63,667 nt of DNA from an uncultured Candidatus Saccharibacteria bacterium (lineage in GTDB: Bacteria; Patescibacteriota; WWE3; 9FT-COMBO-53-11): positions 26,095 through 89,761 of the forward strand of contig CAYGCK010000003.1 in the NCBI GenBank assembly GCA_964348395.1, given 5' to 3'. The notes below the pieces were generated by a model. The model was not told where the DNA came from, made no database searches, and saw only the letters and a list, made by a program, of their open reading frames with translations. The position numbers and the translations under genes are program-made. Below are positions 3,374-56,743 of this stretch, in pieces (positions within the stretch are counted from its first letter, which is position 1; each line of letters starts with the position of its first letter).

Positions 3374-4030
3374 TCAAATAGTCAGGTACTGCTGCGCCTC
3401 GGTGGTCAAAATCACCTTGGGCTGAAGAAGTGCCTTAAGAATAAGAGGATCTCGACGCTTCTTGAGTTCCTCGAATTCCTTCTCCGTCAAAACCGCGTAG
3501 TTTATCTCCTGCTTCCGCCGCTTCTCTTCTTCCTGAACGAGGTTGGTAATCTTTCTGGTCAGCCCGCTTCCTCCGACCACAAGAAGGTCTATGTCGGTCG
3601 GTTCCGGAGTCCGACCGCGAAGAAACGGGATGGAGATGAAAGCAAATTTTATCTCCCCCAGCCCACGACCGCCGGACAAGGCTCGCCCGATACCCTCCTC
3701 CTTTACCAAAAGCCCCAAGAGCTCGTTTAGATGGGTAAAATCCTCGCGAAGCGAGTAAATCAATCGATTTTTGTGCGAGGTACGCGTCAAGAGACCCAGC
3801 GAGATAAGGTTTTCGAGCTCACGGCGGACCGCGTTTATTTCGGCCCCGACGCGGCGGGTTATGGCGCGAACGTGATAGCGTGCCTCGGGTTTTAGGAGGA
3901 AAAGCTTTAGAATATCAATTCTTACCTGGGAAACAAGAAGCTTCTTTAGAGTTCCTTTTGCCGAAGCGGAAGTCGAACTAGCTCTTCTTCGGATCCTCGT
4001 TTTTGTCGTTCCAGGTCTAACTAACGGCAT
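3374..4030 (-). CDS. winged-helix (ArsR-like) transcriptional regulator fused to a nucleotidyltransferase-like domain
   Basis: The ORF track gives 3374..4072. I prefer the ATG at 4030 (MPLVRPG...) because GAGGGGGTGA lies about 11 nt upstream and this start avoids overlap with the upstream gene. The central segment RIDILKLF...VRAITRRVGAEINAVRRELENLISLGLL looks like a wHTH. The C-terminal segment RGRTPEPTDIDLLVVG resembles a minimal NTase motif. Confidence 0.5.
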   Translation of the reverse strand: MPLVRPGTTKTRIRRRASSTSASAKGTLKKLLVSQVRIDILKLFLLKPEARYHVRAITRRVGAEINAVRRELENLISLGLLTRTSHKNRLIYSLREDFTHLNELLGLLVKEEGIGRALSGGRGLGEIKFAFISIPFLRGRTPEPTDIDLLVVGGSGLTRKITNLVQEEEKRRKQEINYAVLTEKEFEELKKRRDPLILKALLQPKVILTTEAQQYLTI

Positions 4031-7406: not shown

Positions 7407-8408
7407 CTACCTTCTCCTACTGACGTGGTTCCATTGCAATACATCCTTAGCAAGGATGGAAAGCATAATTGCGGCCGGAATAGCAAGTAGTAACCCCACA
7501 ATTCCAAAAAGCTGAGCTCCTATAAAAAGAATGATAAGCGCCCCAAGAGGCGAAAAGCCCGCGGTTCGCCCCATTACGTTGGGGACTAGTATGTTGTTTT
7601 CCAGCTGCTGGACGATGATGTAAAGGATAAGAATCCAAAGCCCCATAAGAGGAGAGGTTCCAAACCCCACAAGAAGTCCCGGTATGGCCGCGATTATCGG
7701 ACCGATGGTTGGAATTATTTCAAAGACCCCAGCGATAACCGCCAGAGGGAGTGCGTACTCGACTCCCAAGGCAAAAAGCCCAAGGTAGGTCAAAACCCCA
7801 ACCGCCAACATCAAAAGCACCTGTCCCCTAAGCCACCCACCCAGTTGCTGCTCCATAGAACCGATTATTTTCTCGGATCTACTCTGCGCCTTCTTATTCA
7901 TCATTCCGACAAAACGATTTCTGATGTTCTCCCAATCCAGGAGGAAATAAAAGGTAAAAACGAGGATGGTCACCAAAAGCACAGCGTTTGAAACGATGCT
8001 CCCAGCGACCGTCAAGATGTTTGCCGAAAGAATGGTCGCCTGAGAGACGAGCTGCTGCTGAAGACTTTCGGTGAAAGGTATGGAAGCGAAGCGCTCAAGA
8101 ACCGGCTCGAGAAACCTAGGAAGGTTTACCAAGAATCTTCCCGTTTGGTTAACCAAGGGCGTAAATCCGTAAGTAAGAAGCCCTACGATCGCGGCCAAGA
8201 AAACAAAAAACACCAAAAAGACACCGATGGGTCTGGGAATCTTTAGACCTTTTAGTTTCGCAACCAGTGGATCGAGCGCCAAAGAGAGTATGAGCGCGAT
8301 AAAAAGAGCAACCACGACCATTCTTACCTCAACAAGAATCCAGAGACCGGTCAGAACAGCTAGAGTAAAAAGAACGGTTTTTGGCGTAATCTCGTAGTGC
8401 TTCTCCAT
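7407..8408 (-). CDS. AI-2E family transporter (PerM/YhhT-like permease)
   Basis: 333 aa with about 8 TM. The overall pattern and the C-terminal GFSPLGALIILFIGAQLFGIVGLLLAIP are typical of the family. Confidence 0.75.
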   Translation of the reverse strand: MEKHYEITPKTVLFTLAVLTGLWILVEVRMVVVALFIALILSLALDPLVAKLKGLKIPRPIGVFLVFFVFLAAIVGLLTYGFTPLVNQTGRFLVNLPRFLEPVLERFASIPFTESLQQQLVSQATILSANILTVAGSIVSNAVLLVTILVFTFYFLLDWENIRNRFVGMMNKKAQSRSEKIIGSMEQQLGGWLRGQVLLMLAVGVLTYLGLFALGVEYALPLAVIAGVFEIIPTIGPIIAAIPGLLVGFGTSPLMGLWILILYIIVQQLENNILVPNVMGRTAGFSPLGALIILFIGAQLFGIVGLLLAIPAAIMLSILAKDVLQWNHVSRRR

Positions 8409-8436: not shown

Positions 8437-9096
8437 TTAAACTTTCAAGCCCGAACATAGGTTATGGGCTAAGAGAGTAGGTCGGGGAAGTCTTTGCCCG
8501 CGCAAAGTACAAACCAAGGTCAAACGAACCGCCTCCTCAAGCGATATTTTGTGACCTATCGAGATAAAAATCGGAGCTGAGCCTGGTTTGGTTCTAACCA
8601 CCGTCCCCACGACCTCGCCGTTGTCGATAAGAGGAGATTTATCCCCTATCCGAGATCCCAAATCCTGATAACTGCCCACCAGACGGGACTTAGCTATTCC
8701 GATAGACGATTTGTTCAGCAAAACCCCGATGTGGGAGGCCAGACCCAAGCGGCGGGGATGCGCCAAACCCTGAGCGTCGAAGAGAAAAAGGTCGGGTTTA
8801 GTCTTTAACCTCTCGACGGCGGAGAGAACTGCCTCGCCTTCTCGAAAAGCCAAGAGTCCGGGTATATAGGGAAAAGAAACGGGAACCTCGGAAACCGCCT
8901 TCTCCACAACTCCCATATGCGGAAAGGATAAAACAACGGCCGCCGCGCGAGCCGTGGATTTTGAGGGAAAGGAGACGTCTACGCCGCAAACGTTCGAAAC
9001 CTTTTCCGGGCCTCCGGTTTTAACGACTCGCTTGCTTAAATCTTCCTGTATATTAATCGCTTGGGAAGAGGAGACGTCCCAAGGATGGAAACTCAT
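8437..9096 (-). CDS. nfi: endonuclease V
   Basis: 219 aa with CGVDVSF...YIPGLLAFREGEAVL...LFDAQGLAHPRRLGLASHIGVLL...IGIAKSRL, which are the canonical EndoV motifs. Confidence 0.85.
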   Translation of the reverse strand: MSFHPWDVSSSQAINIQEDLSKRVVKTGGPEKVSNVCGVDVSFPSKSTARAAAVVLSFPHMGVVEKAVSEVPVSFPYIPGLLAFREGEAVLSAVERLKTKPDLFLFDAQGLAHPRRLGLASHIGVLLNKSSIGIAKSRLVGSYQDLGSRIGDKSPLIDNGEVVGTVVRTKPGSAPIFISIGHKISLEEAVRLTLVCTLRGQRLPRPTLLAHNLCSGLKV

Positions 9097-53237: not shown

Positions 53238-54959
53238 TCAAGCAGGTAGTGCCCGTCCATAAATTCTCCTGACACCAGCACCCGCCGACTCCTCCTTTAT
53301 TATTTCAAATTTACCTACTCGCCCAGTTTCTTTGACGTGAGGTCCACCGCAGAGCTCTTTGGAAAAAGAACTATCCGGCTTGTCCCCGATGTGATACAAA
53401 GTAATTTCCTTAGCCTGTTCATATTTTTGGGTGAAAAGCGCTTCCGCGCCGAGTTCCTTTGCACCCTTGTAGGTCGTGACCACACGTTTAACAGGGATGT
53501 TCTCTTTTATCTTTTGGTTAACCAGCCTTTCAACCTCTTTTATTTCCTTTCCGGTGAGTTTGCGATTAAAGGTAAAGTCGTGGCGAAAACGCTCGGTTTC
53601 CAAGTGCTGTCCGGCCTGCCGCACCCGAGGGCCAAGAACCTGCTTTAGCGCGGCGTTCAAGAGGTGGGCGGCCGTGTGCTGTGGGGCTATCAGCTCGTCC
53701 TCCCCCTCTCTCTTCTTTATCGCCGCCCGCGCGCGTTTCCTTTGCTCCTCAAGCTTTTTTTCAAACTCGGAGACGTCGACCGTAAGGTTGCGTTTCCTGG
53801 CCAGCTCCTGCGTAAGCTCCAACGGAAACCCGTAGGTGTCGTAGAGCGTGAAGGCATCCACCTTCTTGTCCATCTTTTCAAGCTCCTTAAGTCCGCGATT
53901 GAGAGCACGATAGAACTTCTGCTCCTCGTCCTCGATAACCTGCTGGATCTCACGTTCGCGTAGCTCGAGTTCCGGATAGAAGTCCTTATACATCTCTAAA
54001 ACTCGGCGCGTGGGCTCCAAAAGGAAATATCCGTTTATCCCCAAGAGCCGCCCGTGTAGAATTGCACGCCGCAAGATTCGGCGAAGAACATAACCTCGCC
54101 CCACGTTAAGCGGGGTCACACCGTCCCCTACAAGAAACACTGCAGCTCGCAGATGATCCGCGATTATCCGCAGCGATCTGACATCCGATTTCTGACCACT
54201 GACCTCTGCCAATTTCTTTATCTCATCCATAAGAGGAGCGAAAAGGTCGGTTTCAAAGACGTTATCCTTCTCCTGAACGATAAGAGCCAACCGCTCCATA
54301 CCCATGCCGGTGTCGATATTCTGCGCTTTGAGCTTGGTATATTTACCTTTTTCGTCTTTGTAGTATTCCATAAAAACCAGATTCCAAAGTTCGATTTCTT
54401 GGCCTGAGGGTAAGACGTAATTTATTTCGGAGGAGGGGCCGCAGGGACCCGTCTTGCCCGGGGGACCCCAAAAGTTGTCCTCCTTGCCTTGCTCGCGGAT
54501 TTCTATTCCGGGGACCTCTTTTTTCCAAAGCTTTTTGGCTTCGGTATCCAAGGGTATATCCCCCTCGCCGCGAAAGATGGTTGCAAACATTCGCTTTGGA
54601 TCGAGTCCCAACTCCCGGGTCAGGAAATTCCATGCCAAAGGAATAGCCAGTTCCTTAAAATAGTCACCTACCGAGAAGTTACCTAGCATCTCGAAAAAGG
54701 TGTGGTGGCTCTCGTCCCCTACCTCCTCTATGTCCGAGGTACGAAAGCACTTCTGGATAGAAACCAGACGAAGATTTCCAAAATCGGCCGTGGGGTCCGC
54801 CTCCCCCATCATGTGGGGCTTGAACTGCTGCATTCCGGCGGTAGTCAAGAGTACCGACTCGTCGGTTGGAGGCGGGACAAGGGAGGACGAGGGTACCACC
54901 TTATGGTCATGAGAGGTGAAATAATCGAAAAATTTTTTACGTATTTCCTGATGAGTCAT
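53238..54959 (-). CDS. alaS: alanine--tRNA ligase, short form (573 aa: catalytic + editing domains, no C-Ala domain)
   Basis: FFDYFTSHDHKVVPSSSLVP, SIQKCFRTSDIEEVG, an editing HxxxH (HTAAHLLNAAL) and CGGPHV. Confidence 0.9.
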   Translation of the reverse strand: MTHQEIRKKFFDYFTSHDHKVVPSSSLVPPPTDESVLLTTAGMQQFKPHMMGEADPTADFGNLRLVSIQKCFRTSDIEEVGDESHHTFFEMLGNFSVGDYFKELAIPLAWNFLTRELGLDPKRMFATIFRGEGDIPLDTEAKKLWKKEVPGIEIREQGKEDNFWGPPGKTGPCGPSSEINYVLPSGQEIELWNLVFMEYYKDEKGKYTKLKAQNIDTGMGMERLALIVQEKDNVFETDLFAPLMDEIKKLAEVSGQKSDVRSLRIIADHLRAAVFLVGDGVTPLNVGRGYVLRRILRRAILHGRLLGINGYFLLEPTRRVLEMYKDFYPELELREREIQQVIEDEEQKFYRALNRGLKELEKMDKKVDAFTLYDTYGFPLELTQELARKRNLTVDVSEFEKKLEEQRKRARAAIKKREGEDELIAPQHTAAHLLNAALKQVLGPRVRQAGQHLETERFRHDFTFNRKLTGKEIKEVERLVNQKIKENIPVKRVVTTYKGAKELGAEALFTQKYEQAKEITLYHIGDKPDSSFSKELCGGPHVKETGRVGKFEIIKEESAGAGVRRIYGRALPA

Positions 54960-55502: not shown

Positions 55503-55937
55503 TTAGCACTCTCTTGCTTTGCGGGCTTGTTCGACCTTGGCCAAGAGCTCCCGCCGTTGCCCCGTTTTCTGGACCGCGTACCGGAAAGCCCTGTACTGGC
55601 AGTCCTTCACGTAGTGAGCTACGGCGTCGGCTCCTTCCGGCGAGAGATGCTCGAGCTTAACCGGCTGACCGGTCAAGACGTCCCAAAAATGCACAAGCTC
55701 CTCGAACATCAGAACGCCAAAGGCGCTGAACATGCGCTCGTCTGGAGTCGTTCCGTCGGTCTCGTGGTCGGCGACCGCGACGACCAACTTCCAACCCATT
55801 GCAATGAAAACAGGCCGTTCCCTTACCACCTTGACGCCCGTGGGACGACCGGGGTGCAGGACCACCTTTACTTCCTGGGGAGGAACCTCGCCAAAATCAC
55901 GGCGCACCTCTTCCCACAAAAATTGGTGGTTCGGCAA
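55503..55937 (-). CDS. hypothetical protein, up to 144 aa; start uncertain (possible frameshifted gene)
   Basis: The long ORF has only a TTG start and no RBS. A strong RBS plus ATG at 56008 opens a different frame that stops at 55868. Confidence 0.35.
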   Translation of the reverse strand: MPNHQFLWEEVRRDFGEVPPQEVKVVLHPGRPTGVKVVRERPVFIAMGWKLVVAVADHETDGTTPDERMFSAFGVLMFEELVHFWDVLTGQPVKLEHLSPEGADAVAHYVKDCQYRAFRYAVQKTGQRRELLAKVEQARKAREC

Positions 55938-56039
55938 AGAAACTTGACCCGCCGTTTAGGGAGCGTGAGCTGGGAGACCAGTCTTACCGCTCCGCTTCGA
56001 ACGGCCATCCCTTACCTCCTTTCCTTAAATTTTTTGAAT

Positions 56040-56168
56040 GCAATCCGGTTGGGATTCGAACCCAACTTGGGTTACAGGCCCACGCCGAGCGTTTGGAATC
56101 CTGTTCCCTCCCTTACTGCGGTATATGAGTGTTACCCAAGACCCGCAGGTCACATACACCCGGATTGC
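56040..56168 (-). ncRNA. tRNA-like structured RNA: 9-bp acceptor-like stem + canonical T arm, non-tRNA body
   Basis: Manual fold. GCAATCCGG/CCGGATTGC closes the molecule and TTGGG-TTCGAAT-CCCAA is stacked directly on it. A 10-bp internal helix CTTGGGTAAC/GTAACCCAAG is present, along with a possible pseudoknot (GTGTATG/CATATAC and CTGCG/CGCAG). I could find no D arm or anticodon arm. Confidence 0.5.
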
Positions 56169-56171
56169 TAG

Positions 56172-56304
56172 TGGAGTAGGCGGGATTCGAACCCGCGTCC
56201 GAACCAAGAGTTGAGGTTTTTAAACCCACGGTCTTTAAGGGGAGTTTGCTCAAGTTGGTTGTCCCCCGGGACCGCCTCTCGACTCGTCGAAACCTTTCTA
56301 CCCC
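56172..56304 (-). ncRNA. ssrA-like: tmRNA-like RNA (complete tRNA-Ala-like domain, drastically shortened body)
   Basis: GGGGTAG/CTACTCC acceptor with G3:U70, GGTTTCGAC after the acceptor strand, GGAC + GCGGG-TTCGAAT-CCCGC T arm, discriminator A, and a P2-like helix GAGTCGAG/CTCAACTC. The total is about 133 nt, against 250-400 nt for known tmRNAs. Confidence 0.6.
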
Positions 56305-56414
56305 ACGTACTCGATCAACAGCATAGCCGCTGATGCAAAGAGAATTATGGCCCAGGCCAAAGCGAGTTTGCGGCGGGCGAGCTTCTCCTTGCTGCGTAGA
56401 TCGAAGTTAGACAT
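56298..56414 (-). CDS. 38-aa single-TM peptide ORF whose stop codon lies inside the tmRNA-like acceptor stem
   Basis: My translation is MSNFDLRSKEKLARRKLALAWAIILFASAAMLLIEYVG*, with AAGGAGG 6 nt upstream of the ATG. Confidence 0.4.
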   Translation of the reverse strand: MSNFDLRSKEKLARRKLALAWAIILFASAAMLLIEYVG

Positions 56415-56500
56415 AGTTGTCCTCCTTGTCTCCTCTTTCTCAACCTTCAAGTTTCCTTGAGGGCTGGGGTGAAGAGCGCTTTTTAGTAACCCAGAAGCGC

Positions 56501-56743
56501 TTAACTGGGCGGTTCGACCTTGCGTACGCGGTTCGTCCGAATACTCTTGGTACCTTCGTCGGTTGTGTAGTGCATCACAAACGGCCTTCCCTCCTGCGGC
56601 AGGCCCGAAACACCCCGCAGAACCGTGATACCGCCTTTCAGCTGAATGAGAACGACTTTGTAGAAGTCACCAAAGTCCTCTTTGATGTTCAGCTGATACT
56701 GCGAACCTGAGTCGGTCTCGAAAACGAAGATGTTGGGTTTCAT
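56501..56743 (-). CDS. hypothetical protein, 80 aa
   Basis: MKPNIFVFETDSGSQYQL..., with GGAAAGGAGG 5 nt upstream of the ATG at 56743. The ORF track's longer start at 56779 lies inside a conserved hairpin. Confidence 0.45.
   Translation of the reverse strand: MKPNIFVFETDSGSQYQLNIKEDFGDFYKVVLIQLKGGITVLRGVSGLPQEGRPFVMHYTTDEGTKSIRTNRVRKVEPPS

Follow-up and report, generated by a model that had tools for sequence, protein, structure and literature searches.

Can a bacterial transfer-messenger RNA (tmRNA, encoded by ssrA) lose its pseudoknots and its degradation tag and still be conserved as a tmRNA? The question is raised by a gene of 133 nt at positions 56172–56304, on the minus strand, of the 63,667-nt stretch of contig CAYGCK010000003.1 analyzed here (the window). 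The initial annotation, made from the letters of this strand, which we find there as quoted, described a gene resembling a tmRNA, its alanine-type tRNA-like domain (TLD) complete and its mRNA-like domain practically missing. This description is borne out: the locus is a genuine, conserved 133-nt tmRNA, hereafter the mini-tmRNA, in which the alanine-type TLD is kept and the pseudoknots and conserved degradation tag are gone.

Infernal searches of the window with the Rfam models, as had been proposed in the initial annotation, place the standard tmRNA model, RF00023 (374 consensus positions; gathering score 47 bits), at 56169–56304(−) with 64.2 bits and E = 9e-23. The match runs end to end over model positions 1–374: both TLD halves and the first helix are aligned, and 53 nt stand for 298 internal model positions. 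Homologous genes of 130–134 nt in four divergent relatives (L038, L040, L041/L042 and L045 in our numbering of loci) also exceed the threshold, at 57.7–68.4 bits. The Rfam permuted model reaches 20.9 bits across the mini-tmRNA and RNA2, the RNA that follows it; a permuted tmRNA was rejected because GGGAGGG is unable to pair with the 3′ acceptor strand. ARAGORN makes no tmRNA call at 56172–56304, in the fetched WWE3 loci described below or on the mini-tmRNAs that we found in metagenomic and viral contigs. The Rfam scan of the 63.7-kb window yields no second tmRNA match, and its other RNA genes are a tRNA-Pro, a 5S rRNA and a partial 23S rRNA only (ARAGORN, Rfam). Because the identical mini-tmRNA sequence is present in an independent Logan assembly of a different sequencing run (L002), and homologues come from four further samples, the gene is not an assembly artifact.

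The alanyl-tRNA synthetase (AlaRS) of the window is also encoded on the metagenome-assembled genome GCA_011772635.1. Its closest homologues, 74–79% identical, are named "candidate division WWE3" or "Patescibacteria group," and the window is therefore assigned to a bacterium of the candidate phyla radiation (CPR). For comparison, the alaS neighborhoods of seven relatives were fetched (L039, L040, L041/L042, L043, L044, L045 and L046), together with a 1.1-kb contig, L038; L041/L042 is GCA_001772805.1, WWE3 bacterium RBG_19FT_COMBO_53_11. Alignments of five sequences refer to the window, L038, L040, L041 and L045. The gene and the parts of its TLD are as follows.

56172–56304, minus strand: mini-tmRNA (reduced ssrA), from G1 to the discriminator A, 133 nt.
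56298–56304, minus strand: 5′ strand of the acceptor stem, GGGGUAG, pairing with 56173–56179 and holding the UAG stop of a small open reading frame (ORF) upstream.
56173–56179, minus strand: 3′ strand of the acceptor stem, CUACUCC, with 7 of 7 pairs invariant in the five sequences; the discriminator A is 56172.
56287–56297, minus strand: D-loop analogue AAAGGUUUCGA (GGUUUCGAC with C19), which aligns with GGaUUCGAC in the RF00023 consensus and corresponds to the elbow of tmRNA type and the SmpB-contact region.
56180–56196, minus strand: T arm GCGGG-UUCGAAU-CCCGC, with GGAC just before it; the stem is invariant in the five sequences and fits the RF00023 consensus.
56169–56171, minus strand: 3′ trailer CUA (CCUA in relatives); CCA is not fully encoded.

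The TLD is as the initial annotation had described it, including the absence of an encoded CCA. The 7-bp acceptor GGGGUAG/CUACUCC, its G3:U70 pair and the discriminator A are unchanged in all five homologous sequences. The D-loop analogue, tmRNA-like as claimed, shows base variants, reading GGUUUCGAC in the window, GGUGUCGAC in L041 and GGUUUUCGAC in L045; UCGAC and one preceding G are invariant in five of five. The GGAC neck and the T arm are likewise confirmed, the neck being GGAU in L038. The RNA thus combines a GUUCGAAUC-type T loop, the D-loop analogue GGNUUCGAC and no anticodon arm. Since the features by which RNase P, AlaRS, EF-Tu and SmpB would recognize the molecule are conserved, a few single-base variants apart, while the helix P2 varies freely, a working alanine-accepting TLD is favored. 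The RNA enclosed by the TLD has four further elements.

56276–56286, minus strand: 5′ strand of P2, CGAGUCGAGAG, pairing over 11 bp with 56200–56210.
56200–56210, minus strand: 3′ strand of P2, CUCUUGGUUCG, from the five-sequence alignment.
56228–56275, minus strand: helix 3 (GCGGUC/GACCGU) around hairpin 4 (GGGGGA, an 18-nt loop, UCCCCU), from the five-sequence alignment.
56214–56227, minus strand: hairpin 5, GGGUU-UAAA-AACCU, branching off the 3′ strand, from the minimum-free-energy fold; it was absent from the initial annotation.

P2, drawn as CGAGUCGAGAG/CUCUUGGUUCG, abuts the TLD, in agreement with the Rfam alignment and the minimum-free-energy fold. A P2-like helix with one mismatch, GAGTCGAG/CTCAACTC, had been proposed earlier; its register proves wrong, as it is broken by substitutions in L038, L041 and L045 that favor CGAGUCGAGAG/CUCUUGGUUCG instead, and the length inside P2 becomes 65 rather than 62 nt. 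The core inside P2 is a three-way junction of helix 3, hairpin 4 and hairpin 5. The inner helices seen from the single sequence, CGGTC/GACCG and GGGGA/TCCCC around an 18-nt loop, hold up, the first with compensatory changes and the second near-invariant. No pseudoknot PK1 lies upstream of the resume codon, the core folding as nested helices in the minimum-free-energy structure, and L041 does not preserve a pseudoknot drawn by eye between AACC of the helix-4 loop and the GGUU in hairpin 5. Pseudoknots PK2–PK4 or replacements for them are also missing. As had been anticipated, the 65 nt within P2, with 298 model positions reduced to 53 nt, leave no room for them.

The structure was tested by projecting the minimum-free-energy fold of the window onto the five-sequence alignment, the fold itself being derived from one of these five. 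Standard pairs make up 97% of pair cells. In a control in which the 3′ partners are slid by 1–3 columns, pairing falls to 41–58%. Seven pairs are compensatory, with both sides changed (P2 has four of these, helix 3 two and hairpin 5 one), so that the alignment of syntenic relatives suggested in the initial annotation did reveal such changes. In P2, four more of the 11 bp are changed on one side, and 94.5% of cells are paired. Helix 3 pairs in 100% of cells, with one position appearing as UA, CG, GC and UG, and hairpin 5 is paired in 92% of cells. The stem of hairpin 4, GGGGGA/UCCCCU, is invariant in sequence except for column 45, which is C in L040; its loop, of 18–19 nt, is partly conserved. 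At the DNA level, the window is 83–90% identical to its relatives over the mini-tmRNA, 78–84% over 5S rRNA, 69–70% over alaS and 56–71% over the small ORF. By this measure, the mini-tmRNA is under a constraint comparable to that of an rRNA and evolves about as slowly as 5S rRNA.

If the mRNA-like domain is this small, does any tag reading frame survive? One candidate is present.

56235–56249, minus strand: four-codon frame GCA AAC UCC CCU UAA (ANSP*), overlapping the 3′ strand of hairpin 4.

The initial annotation named ANSP* as the only frame beginning with Ala, and GCA AAC UCC CCU UAA does exist in the window; it is not conserved as such. L038, L040 and L045 have GGA AAC UCC CCU UAA (GNSP*), and in L041 a U-to-A change removes the stop, so that the frame runs off the 3′ end. 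The form G[C/G]A AAC UCC CCU UAA is thus found in four of the five sequences, and its peptide ends in Pro. Because the frame sits on the invariant strand of helix 4, coding and structural constraint are inseparable here. As judged from these sequences, there appears to be no conserved frame beginning with Ala and no hydrophobic tag.

The gene also has a stable chromosomal position. As in the window, where ftsK and alaS enclose it, it lies upstream of alaS in L040, L041/L042 and L045, with ftsK on the far side in L040 and L041/L042; the L045 contig ends before ftsK, L038 shows the order of the module only and L039 starts at alaS. In the three alaS-bearing loci with the mini-tmRNA, AlaRS is 75–77% identical to that of the window. 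The L041 orthologue (7682–7811) is 82.7% identical to the mini-tmRNA of the window and has an identical architecture at the same ftsK–alaS locus, its AlaRS being 75% identical. An origin of the locus as a foreign island was rejected: its GC content equals that of the flanks, and the neighboring ORFs are without phage families. The small ORFs between ftsK and alaS have no Pfam or PHROG match, and a simple scan of the locus shows no promoter-like or terminator-like site. The gapped DNA pattern that we used for wider searches, TCGAACCCNCGTCCN{70,100}GTCGAANCCN{5,8}CCCC, cannot match GGUGUCGAC of L041 and so undercounts the family. On the genome collection it gave three chance hits only (tRNA arrays; a normal tmRNA on the other strand), and blastn of the mini-tmRNA against phage records returned only the T-arm regions of normal or permuted tmRNAs.

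Several observations concern the locus and its relatives more generally. In every genome having the RNA, alaS lies 1.2 kb downstream on the same strand. The AlaRS gene of the window (53238–54959, minus strand) encodes 573 amino acids only and matches the families tRNA-synt_2c and tRNA_SAD, and the top-listed homologues are mostly similar in length. A tRNA-Trp(CCA) gene (8536–8607) occupies the equivalent place in L044, which lacks the mini-tmRNA at the locus. The motif TTAGGAGA lies ahead of this tRNA-Trp and of the mini-tmRNA of L040; in L045 it stands before the duplicated GGGGTAGA that is upstream of an insertion. That insertion (L045 1351–1436) is about 70 nt long, has GTAGTAGAATTTCGAT / ATCGAAATTTCACTAC as imperfect inverted repeats at its termini, falls precisely at the 5′ end of the mini-tmRNA and is flanked by the duplicated GGGGTAGA; it looks like a miniature inverted-repeat transposable element with an 8-bp target duplication that has left the gene intact. 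The 23S rRNA gene of L040 holds a group I intron (2139–2397), and L043 has a LAGLIDADG ORF (367–774) near the start of its contig, upstream of the 5S rRNA gene and presumably in the 23S region. By coordinate arithmetic, positions 1–21464 of the window reach about 21 kb past the end of the NCBI contig that shares the locus, WVZC01000098.1 (263,761 bp), so that the window must stem from a different and longer assembly version.

What surrounds the mini-tmRNA bears on what it may do. Four neighboring elements define a small module.

56039–56168, minus strand: RNA2, a tRNA-shaped RNA of about 130 nt in tandem with the mini-tmRNA (z = −2.9; RNAalifold).
56298–56414, minus strand: small membrane-peptide ORF of 38 amino acids whose stop lies inside the tmRNA acceptor stem; homologous ORFs with the same UAG occur in L038 and L041.
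56475–56501, minus strand: hairpin AGCGCUU...AAGCGCU after an upstream ORF of 92 amino acids, an approximate left boundary of the module (window, L038, L040, L043 and L045).
55503–56008, minus strand: downstream ORF, frameshifted in the window into pieces of 46 and 144 amino acids and intact at 167–168 amino acids in L038, L040 and L045.

RNA2 starts 3–4 nt after the mini-tmRNA and is also found at L038 380–509, L041 7816–7947 and L045 ~1567–1699; in L040, a different, class-II-tRNA-like element takes its position. An 8-bp acceptor-like stem and a canonical T arm (GUUGGG-UUCGAAU-CCCAAC) are accompanied by two enlarged arms and by a junction rich in purines, GUAAGGGAGG (also AUAAGGAAGG), that is Shine-Dalgarno-like. 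RNAalifold on three sequences gives 45 pairs, seven of them with compensatory changes. RNA2 has no Rfam family even at weak thresholds, no ARAGORN call and no phage match, and in its own right it is a candidate new RNA family. RNA2 was rejected as a coding region, its frame in L041 being displaced by an indel relative to the window; a pairing of its GUAAGGGAGG with CUCCCCUUA of the mini-tmRNA, drawn by eye, was also rejected, as L041 gives it no covariation.

In the window, L038 and L041, the acceptor strand GGGG-UAG carries the UAG stop of the small ORF. Maturation of the tmRNA by RNase P would cut the mRNA of the 38-amino-acid ORF ahead of its stop and yield a non-stop mRNA, although the significance of this is speculation. 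The same arrangement has been described for smpB-ssrA of Carsonella (Hudson et al., 2014; PMC4131195). The downstream ORF of the window has a 1-nt deletion in a T run at 55930–55945 (minus strand) relative to L038 (168 amino acids), and it may be a pseudogene, a sequencing error or a slippery site. This ORF has a single homologue among 5.8 billion proteins, and the 1.1-kb contig that encodes it is L038, where small ORF, mini-tmRNA, RNA2 and ORF follow in the same order as in the window. The full-length homologues of 167–168 amino acids have no Pfam or PHROG match, and an AlphaFold model of the 168-amino-acid protein has a pLDDT of 45, too low for use. The composition of the module varies: L040 has another RNA2 and no overlapping ORF, L041 is without the 168-amino-acid ORF and the ORF of the window is frameshifted. 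The mini-tmRNA is therefore the constant part.

If the mini-tmRNA is a tmRNA by descent, what is it kept for? We lean, if only slightly, toward the view that the locus is the resident ssrA of a WWE3 subclade, vertically inherited, cut to 133 nt and performing ribosome rescue with no tag or nearly none. The RNA retains all that tRNA-Ala behavior requires of a tmRNA: a shape suited to RNase P, G3:U70 and the discriminator A for AlaRS, both the acceptor and the T arm for EF-Tu and, for SmpB, the elbow and neck formed by GGNUUCGAC/GGAC. It would be co-transcribed with the upstream 38-amino-acid ORF and the downstream RNA2, and RNase P would cut at the 5′ ends of the mini-tmRNA and of RNA2, with trimming and CCA addition to follow. 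Once charged with alanine, it could be brought by SmpB and EF-Tu to stalled ribosomes with an empty A site and there accept the nascent chain. Release might come about through translation of the vestigial four-codon frame, (A/G)-N-S-P-stop, present in four of the five species; where the frame is broken, the peptidyl-RNA may drop off or be hydrolyzed. By either route, the ribosome would be rescued and no degradation tag added.

A bolder version, which we hold tentatively and consider rather doubtful, is that the 133-nt RNA is the only ssrA of the subclade and still rescues ribosomes, ending on the (A/G)NSP frame or without resumed translation; it would then be the smallest working bacterial tmRNA and one with no pseudoknots. 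In this version, RNA2 might act together with it, and the RNase P cut that removes the stop of the 38-amino-acid ORF might supply a built-in non-stop substrate. If the 133-nt RNA is the only ssrA of the clade, the TLD, P2 and a 65-nt core would be a natural minimal tmRNA, would define the bacterial minimum for ribosome rescue and would offer a natural test case for doing without proteolytic tagging and the pseudoknot ring. Such an ssrA would also fit the pared-down translation machinery of CPR bacteria. As ARAGORN misses such genes, tmRNA may have been wrongly scored as absent from such genomes.

Several points weigh against a role in rescue. The covariation comes from five sequences only. With tblastn, SmpB was found neither in the window nor in the WWE3 loci fetched, a small part of each genome; a control SmpB beside a canonical tmRNA, in L009, was found. 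The 65-nt loop may be too short to thread the mRNA channel as the ring of a canonical tmRNA does. The short frame is not conserved in L041, and its resume codon reads as Gly in three species. Lastly, the mini-tmRNA is absent from the interval upstream of alaS in L043 (AlaRS 74% identical), L044 (70%) and L046 (60%). That three similarly or more distant relatives should lack an essential housekeeping gene at the locus would be surprising, unless they carry it elsewhere or have lost it.

The principal competing explanation, which we regard as unlikely, is that the mini-tmRNA is an accessory decoy or regulator beside a normal ssrA elsewhere in the genome, competing for SmpB, AlaRS or EF-Tu and so damping or tuning trans-translation. 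Such a role has been proposed for mycobacteriophage DS6A, whose tmRNA gene is "TLD only": a molecule of this sort is a strong inhibitor of tmRNA, perhaps through titration of SmpB (Hudson et al., 2014, PMC4131195; restated in PMC11915505). Mini-tmRNAs of 118–145 nt also occur in viral and metagenomic contigs, often by tRNA genes, and the WWE3 gene lies in a variable stretch of small ORFs that lacks it in L043, L044 and L046. However, the locus has neither phage or mobile-element genes nor a compositional anomaly, and the RNA has been passed on vertically at one chromosomal site while AlaRS diverged by about 25%. ARAGORN detects no tmRNA in any fetched WWE3 locus, and the tmRNA database treats the RNA as the tmRNA of its species (PMC11915505). 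The conserved 65-nt core has no counterpart in DS6A, where P2 encloses only 20 nt, and suggests that the RNA is not simply a decoy.

It is also possible, with a similarly small chance, that the mini-tmRNA and RNA2 are a pair of tRNA-like RNAs repurposed away from the ribosome, serving, for instance, as punctuation for processing by RNase P and RNase Z or as an alanine donor or scaffold together with the 168-amino-acid protein. The conserved module of small ORF, mini-tmRNA, RNA2 and 167–168-amino-acid ORF would fit this explanation, as would RNA2, which is also conserved, tRNA-shaped and of no known family. The stop of the small ORF lies inside the acceptor stem in three species, and its processing and translation would therefore be coupled. 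Yet punctuation needs no G3:U70, no discriminator A and no tmRNA-specific GGNUUCGAC/GGAC neck, all of which are conserved bar single-base variants (L038, L041 and L045), and around the constant mini-tmRNA the composition of the module varies.

Finally, a decaying remnant, that is, an internally deleted ssrA pseudogene not yet eroded, as the initial annotation had allowed, is effectively refuted: deletion derivatives do exist (the 136-nt copy in L022) and the neighboring ORF is frameshifted in the window, but the gene is conserved at an rRNA-like level, with 83–90% identity across five lineages against 56–71% for flanking coding DNA, a 5S-like rate, seven compensatory pairs and near-invariant identity elements.

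How does the mini-tmRNA compare with tmRNAs already described? Against the standard tmRNA of the 374-position RF00023 model, it shares the TLD, the abutting P2 and the alanine identity elements, and at 133 nt it lacks PK1–PK4, helix 5 and a conserved tag ORF whose C-terminus is hydrophobic. The DS6A gene, which we located as an 83-nt match to RF00023 (43.2 bits, below the threshold of 47 bits, with Rfam at an E-value threshold), is likewise a one-piece TLD with a short P2 and no tag. It is phage-borne and a proposed inhibitor of the host tmRNA, whereas the WWE3 RNA is chromosomal, vertically inherited and larger.

Using the gapped pattern, we also found about 17 mini-tmRNAs in metagenomes and viral contigs, none of the WWE3 type. 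A heterogeneous set of 122–144 nt, in metagenomic and IMG/VR viral contigs, all have G3:U70 and score 58–73 bits on RF00023 (L006/L019/L025, L007, L008, L010, L013, L014, L016, L017, L018, L020, L021, L023, L024 and L027). They often lie beside tRNA genes or within tRNA arrays, L023 also having a helicase and a primase of phage type. Inspected by eye, several show P2 and a PK1-like pseudoknot with no ORF; the cores of the set are unrelated to the WWE3 core. L022 has a full-length tmRNA (2528–2834; tag ANNDVENFGDYAIAA*) and, 670 nt on, a 136-nt copy (3505–3640) that is an exact internal deletion between GGCTGT (GGCUGU) repeats, with the downstream flank repeated too; this copy is either a true deletion derivative of recent origin or a repeat introduced by the assembly where the contig ends. 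Five phage records, L028, L029, L031, L032 and L033 (PQ569993, MF663786, OQ749652, KU682439 and OK149171), have standard or permuted Rfam tmRNAs where nothing is annotated. In Mycobacterium phage Nanosmite (L030 2418–2795), a GOLLD RNA match of 192 bits lies among tRNA genes and adjoins an unannotated 353-nt tmRNA.

Further parallels come from a tmRNA database paper of 2025 (PMC11915505). It describes tmRNAs without a coding sequence (CDS) in the mitochondria of jakobids and oomycetes and in the plastids of Mallomonadaceae, the plastid forms being of about 65 bp. According to the passage of that paper that cites Jacob et al. (2004), the CDS-less mitochondrial tmRNAs are argued to be still functional, helping to deal with incomplete mRNAs, as SmpB co-occurs with them. 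Like the WWE3 RNA, these organellar RNAs have kept the TLD and lost the tag frame; they are usually permuted or in two pieces and are smaller, whereas the WWE3 RNA is bacterial, in one piece and has a conserved 65-nt core inside P2. Among bacteria, the tmRNA of Nasuia and those of Fermentibacterota with a tag of two amino acids (Ala-Ala) have a tag frame that is absent or extremely short (PMC11915505). The likeness here is at the level of description, and the Fermentibacterota tag ends in Ala-Ala whereas the WWE3 candidate frame ends in Pro.

The same paper remarks that "9FT-COMBO-53-11 sp001772805" "may lack tag reading frames" (PMC11915505). Judging from the identical assembly number, GCA_001772805.1, this entry is probably the L041 orthologue, and the novelty implied by the initial annotation was overstated, this orthologue having already been catalogued and flagged. 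In its second phase, the database search turned to the genomes left without a tmRNA by ARAGORN and BLASTN and accepted their best Rfam hit (PMC11915505). The paper is silent on the route by which this entry came in; entry through the second phase, which we infer, would be in keeping with that genome having no canonical ssrA. The catalogued RNA is orthologous, syntenic and 82.7% identical to that of the window and belongs to another species (AlaRS 75% identical). The remark is a single sentence and does not cover the size, structure or conservation of the RNA, the (A/G)NSP* frame of the other four species or RNA2. With an intact alanine-type TLD, no conserved tag CDS and retention among five diverged sequences, the WWE3 RNA has the features of the CDS-less and TLD-only tmRNAs. 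The mini-tmRNA looks functional and is an unusual but further member of a described kind, in a clade that had already been flagged.

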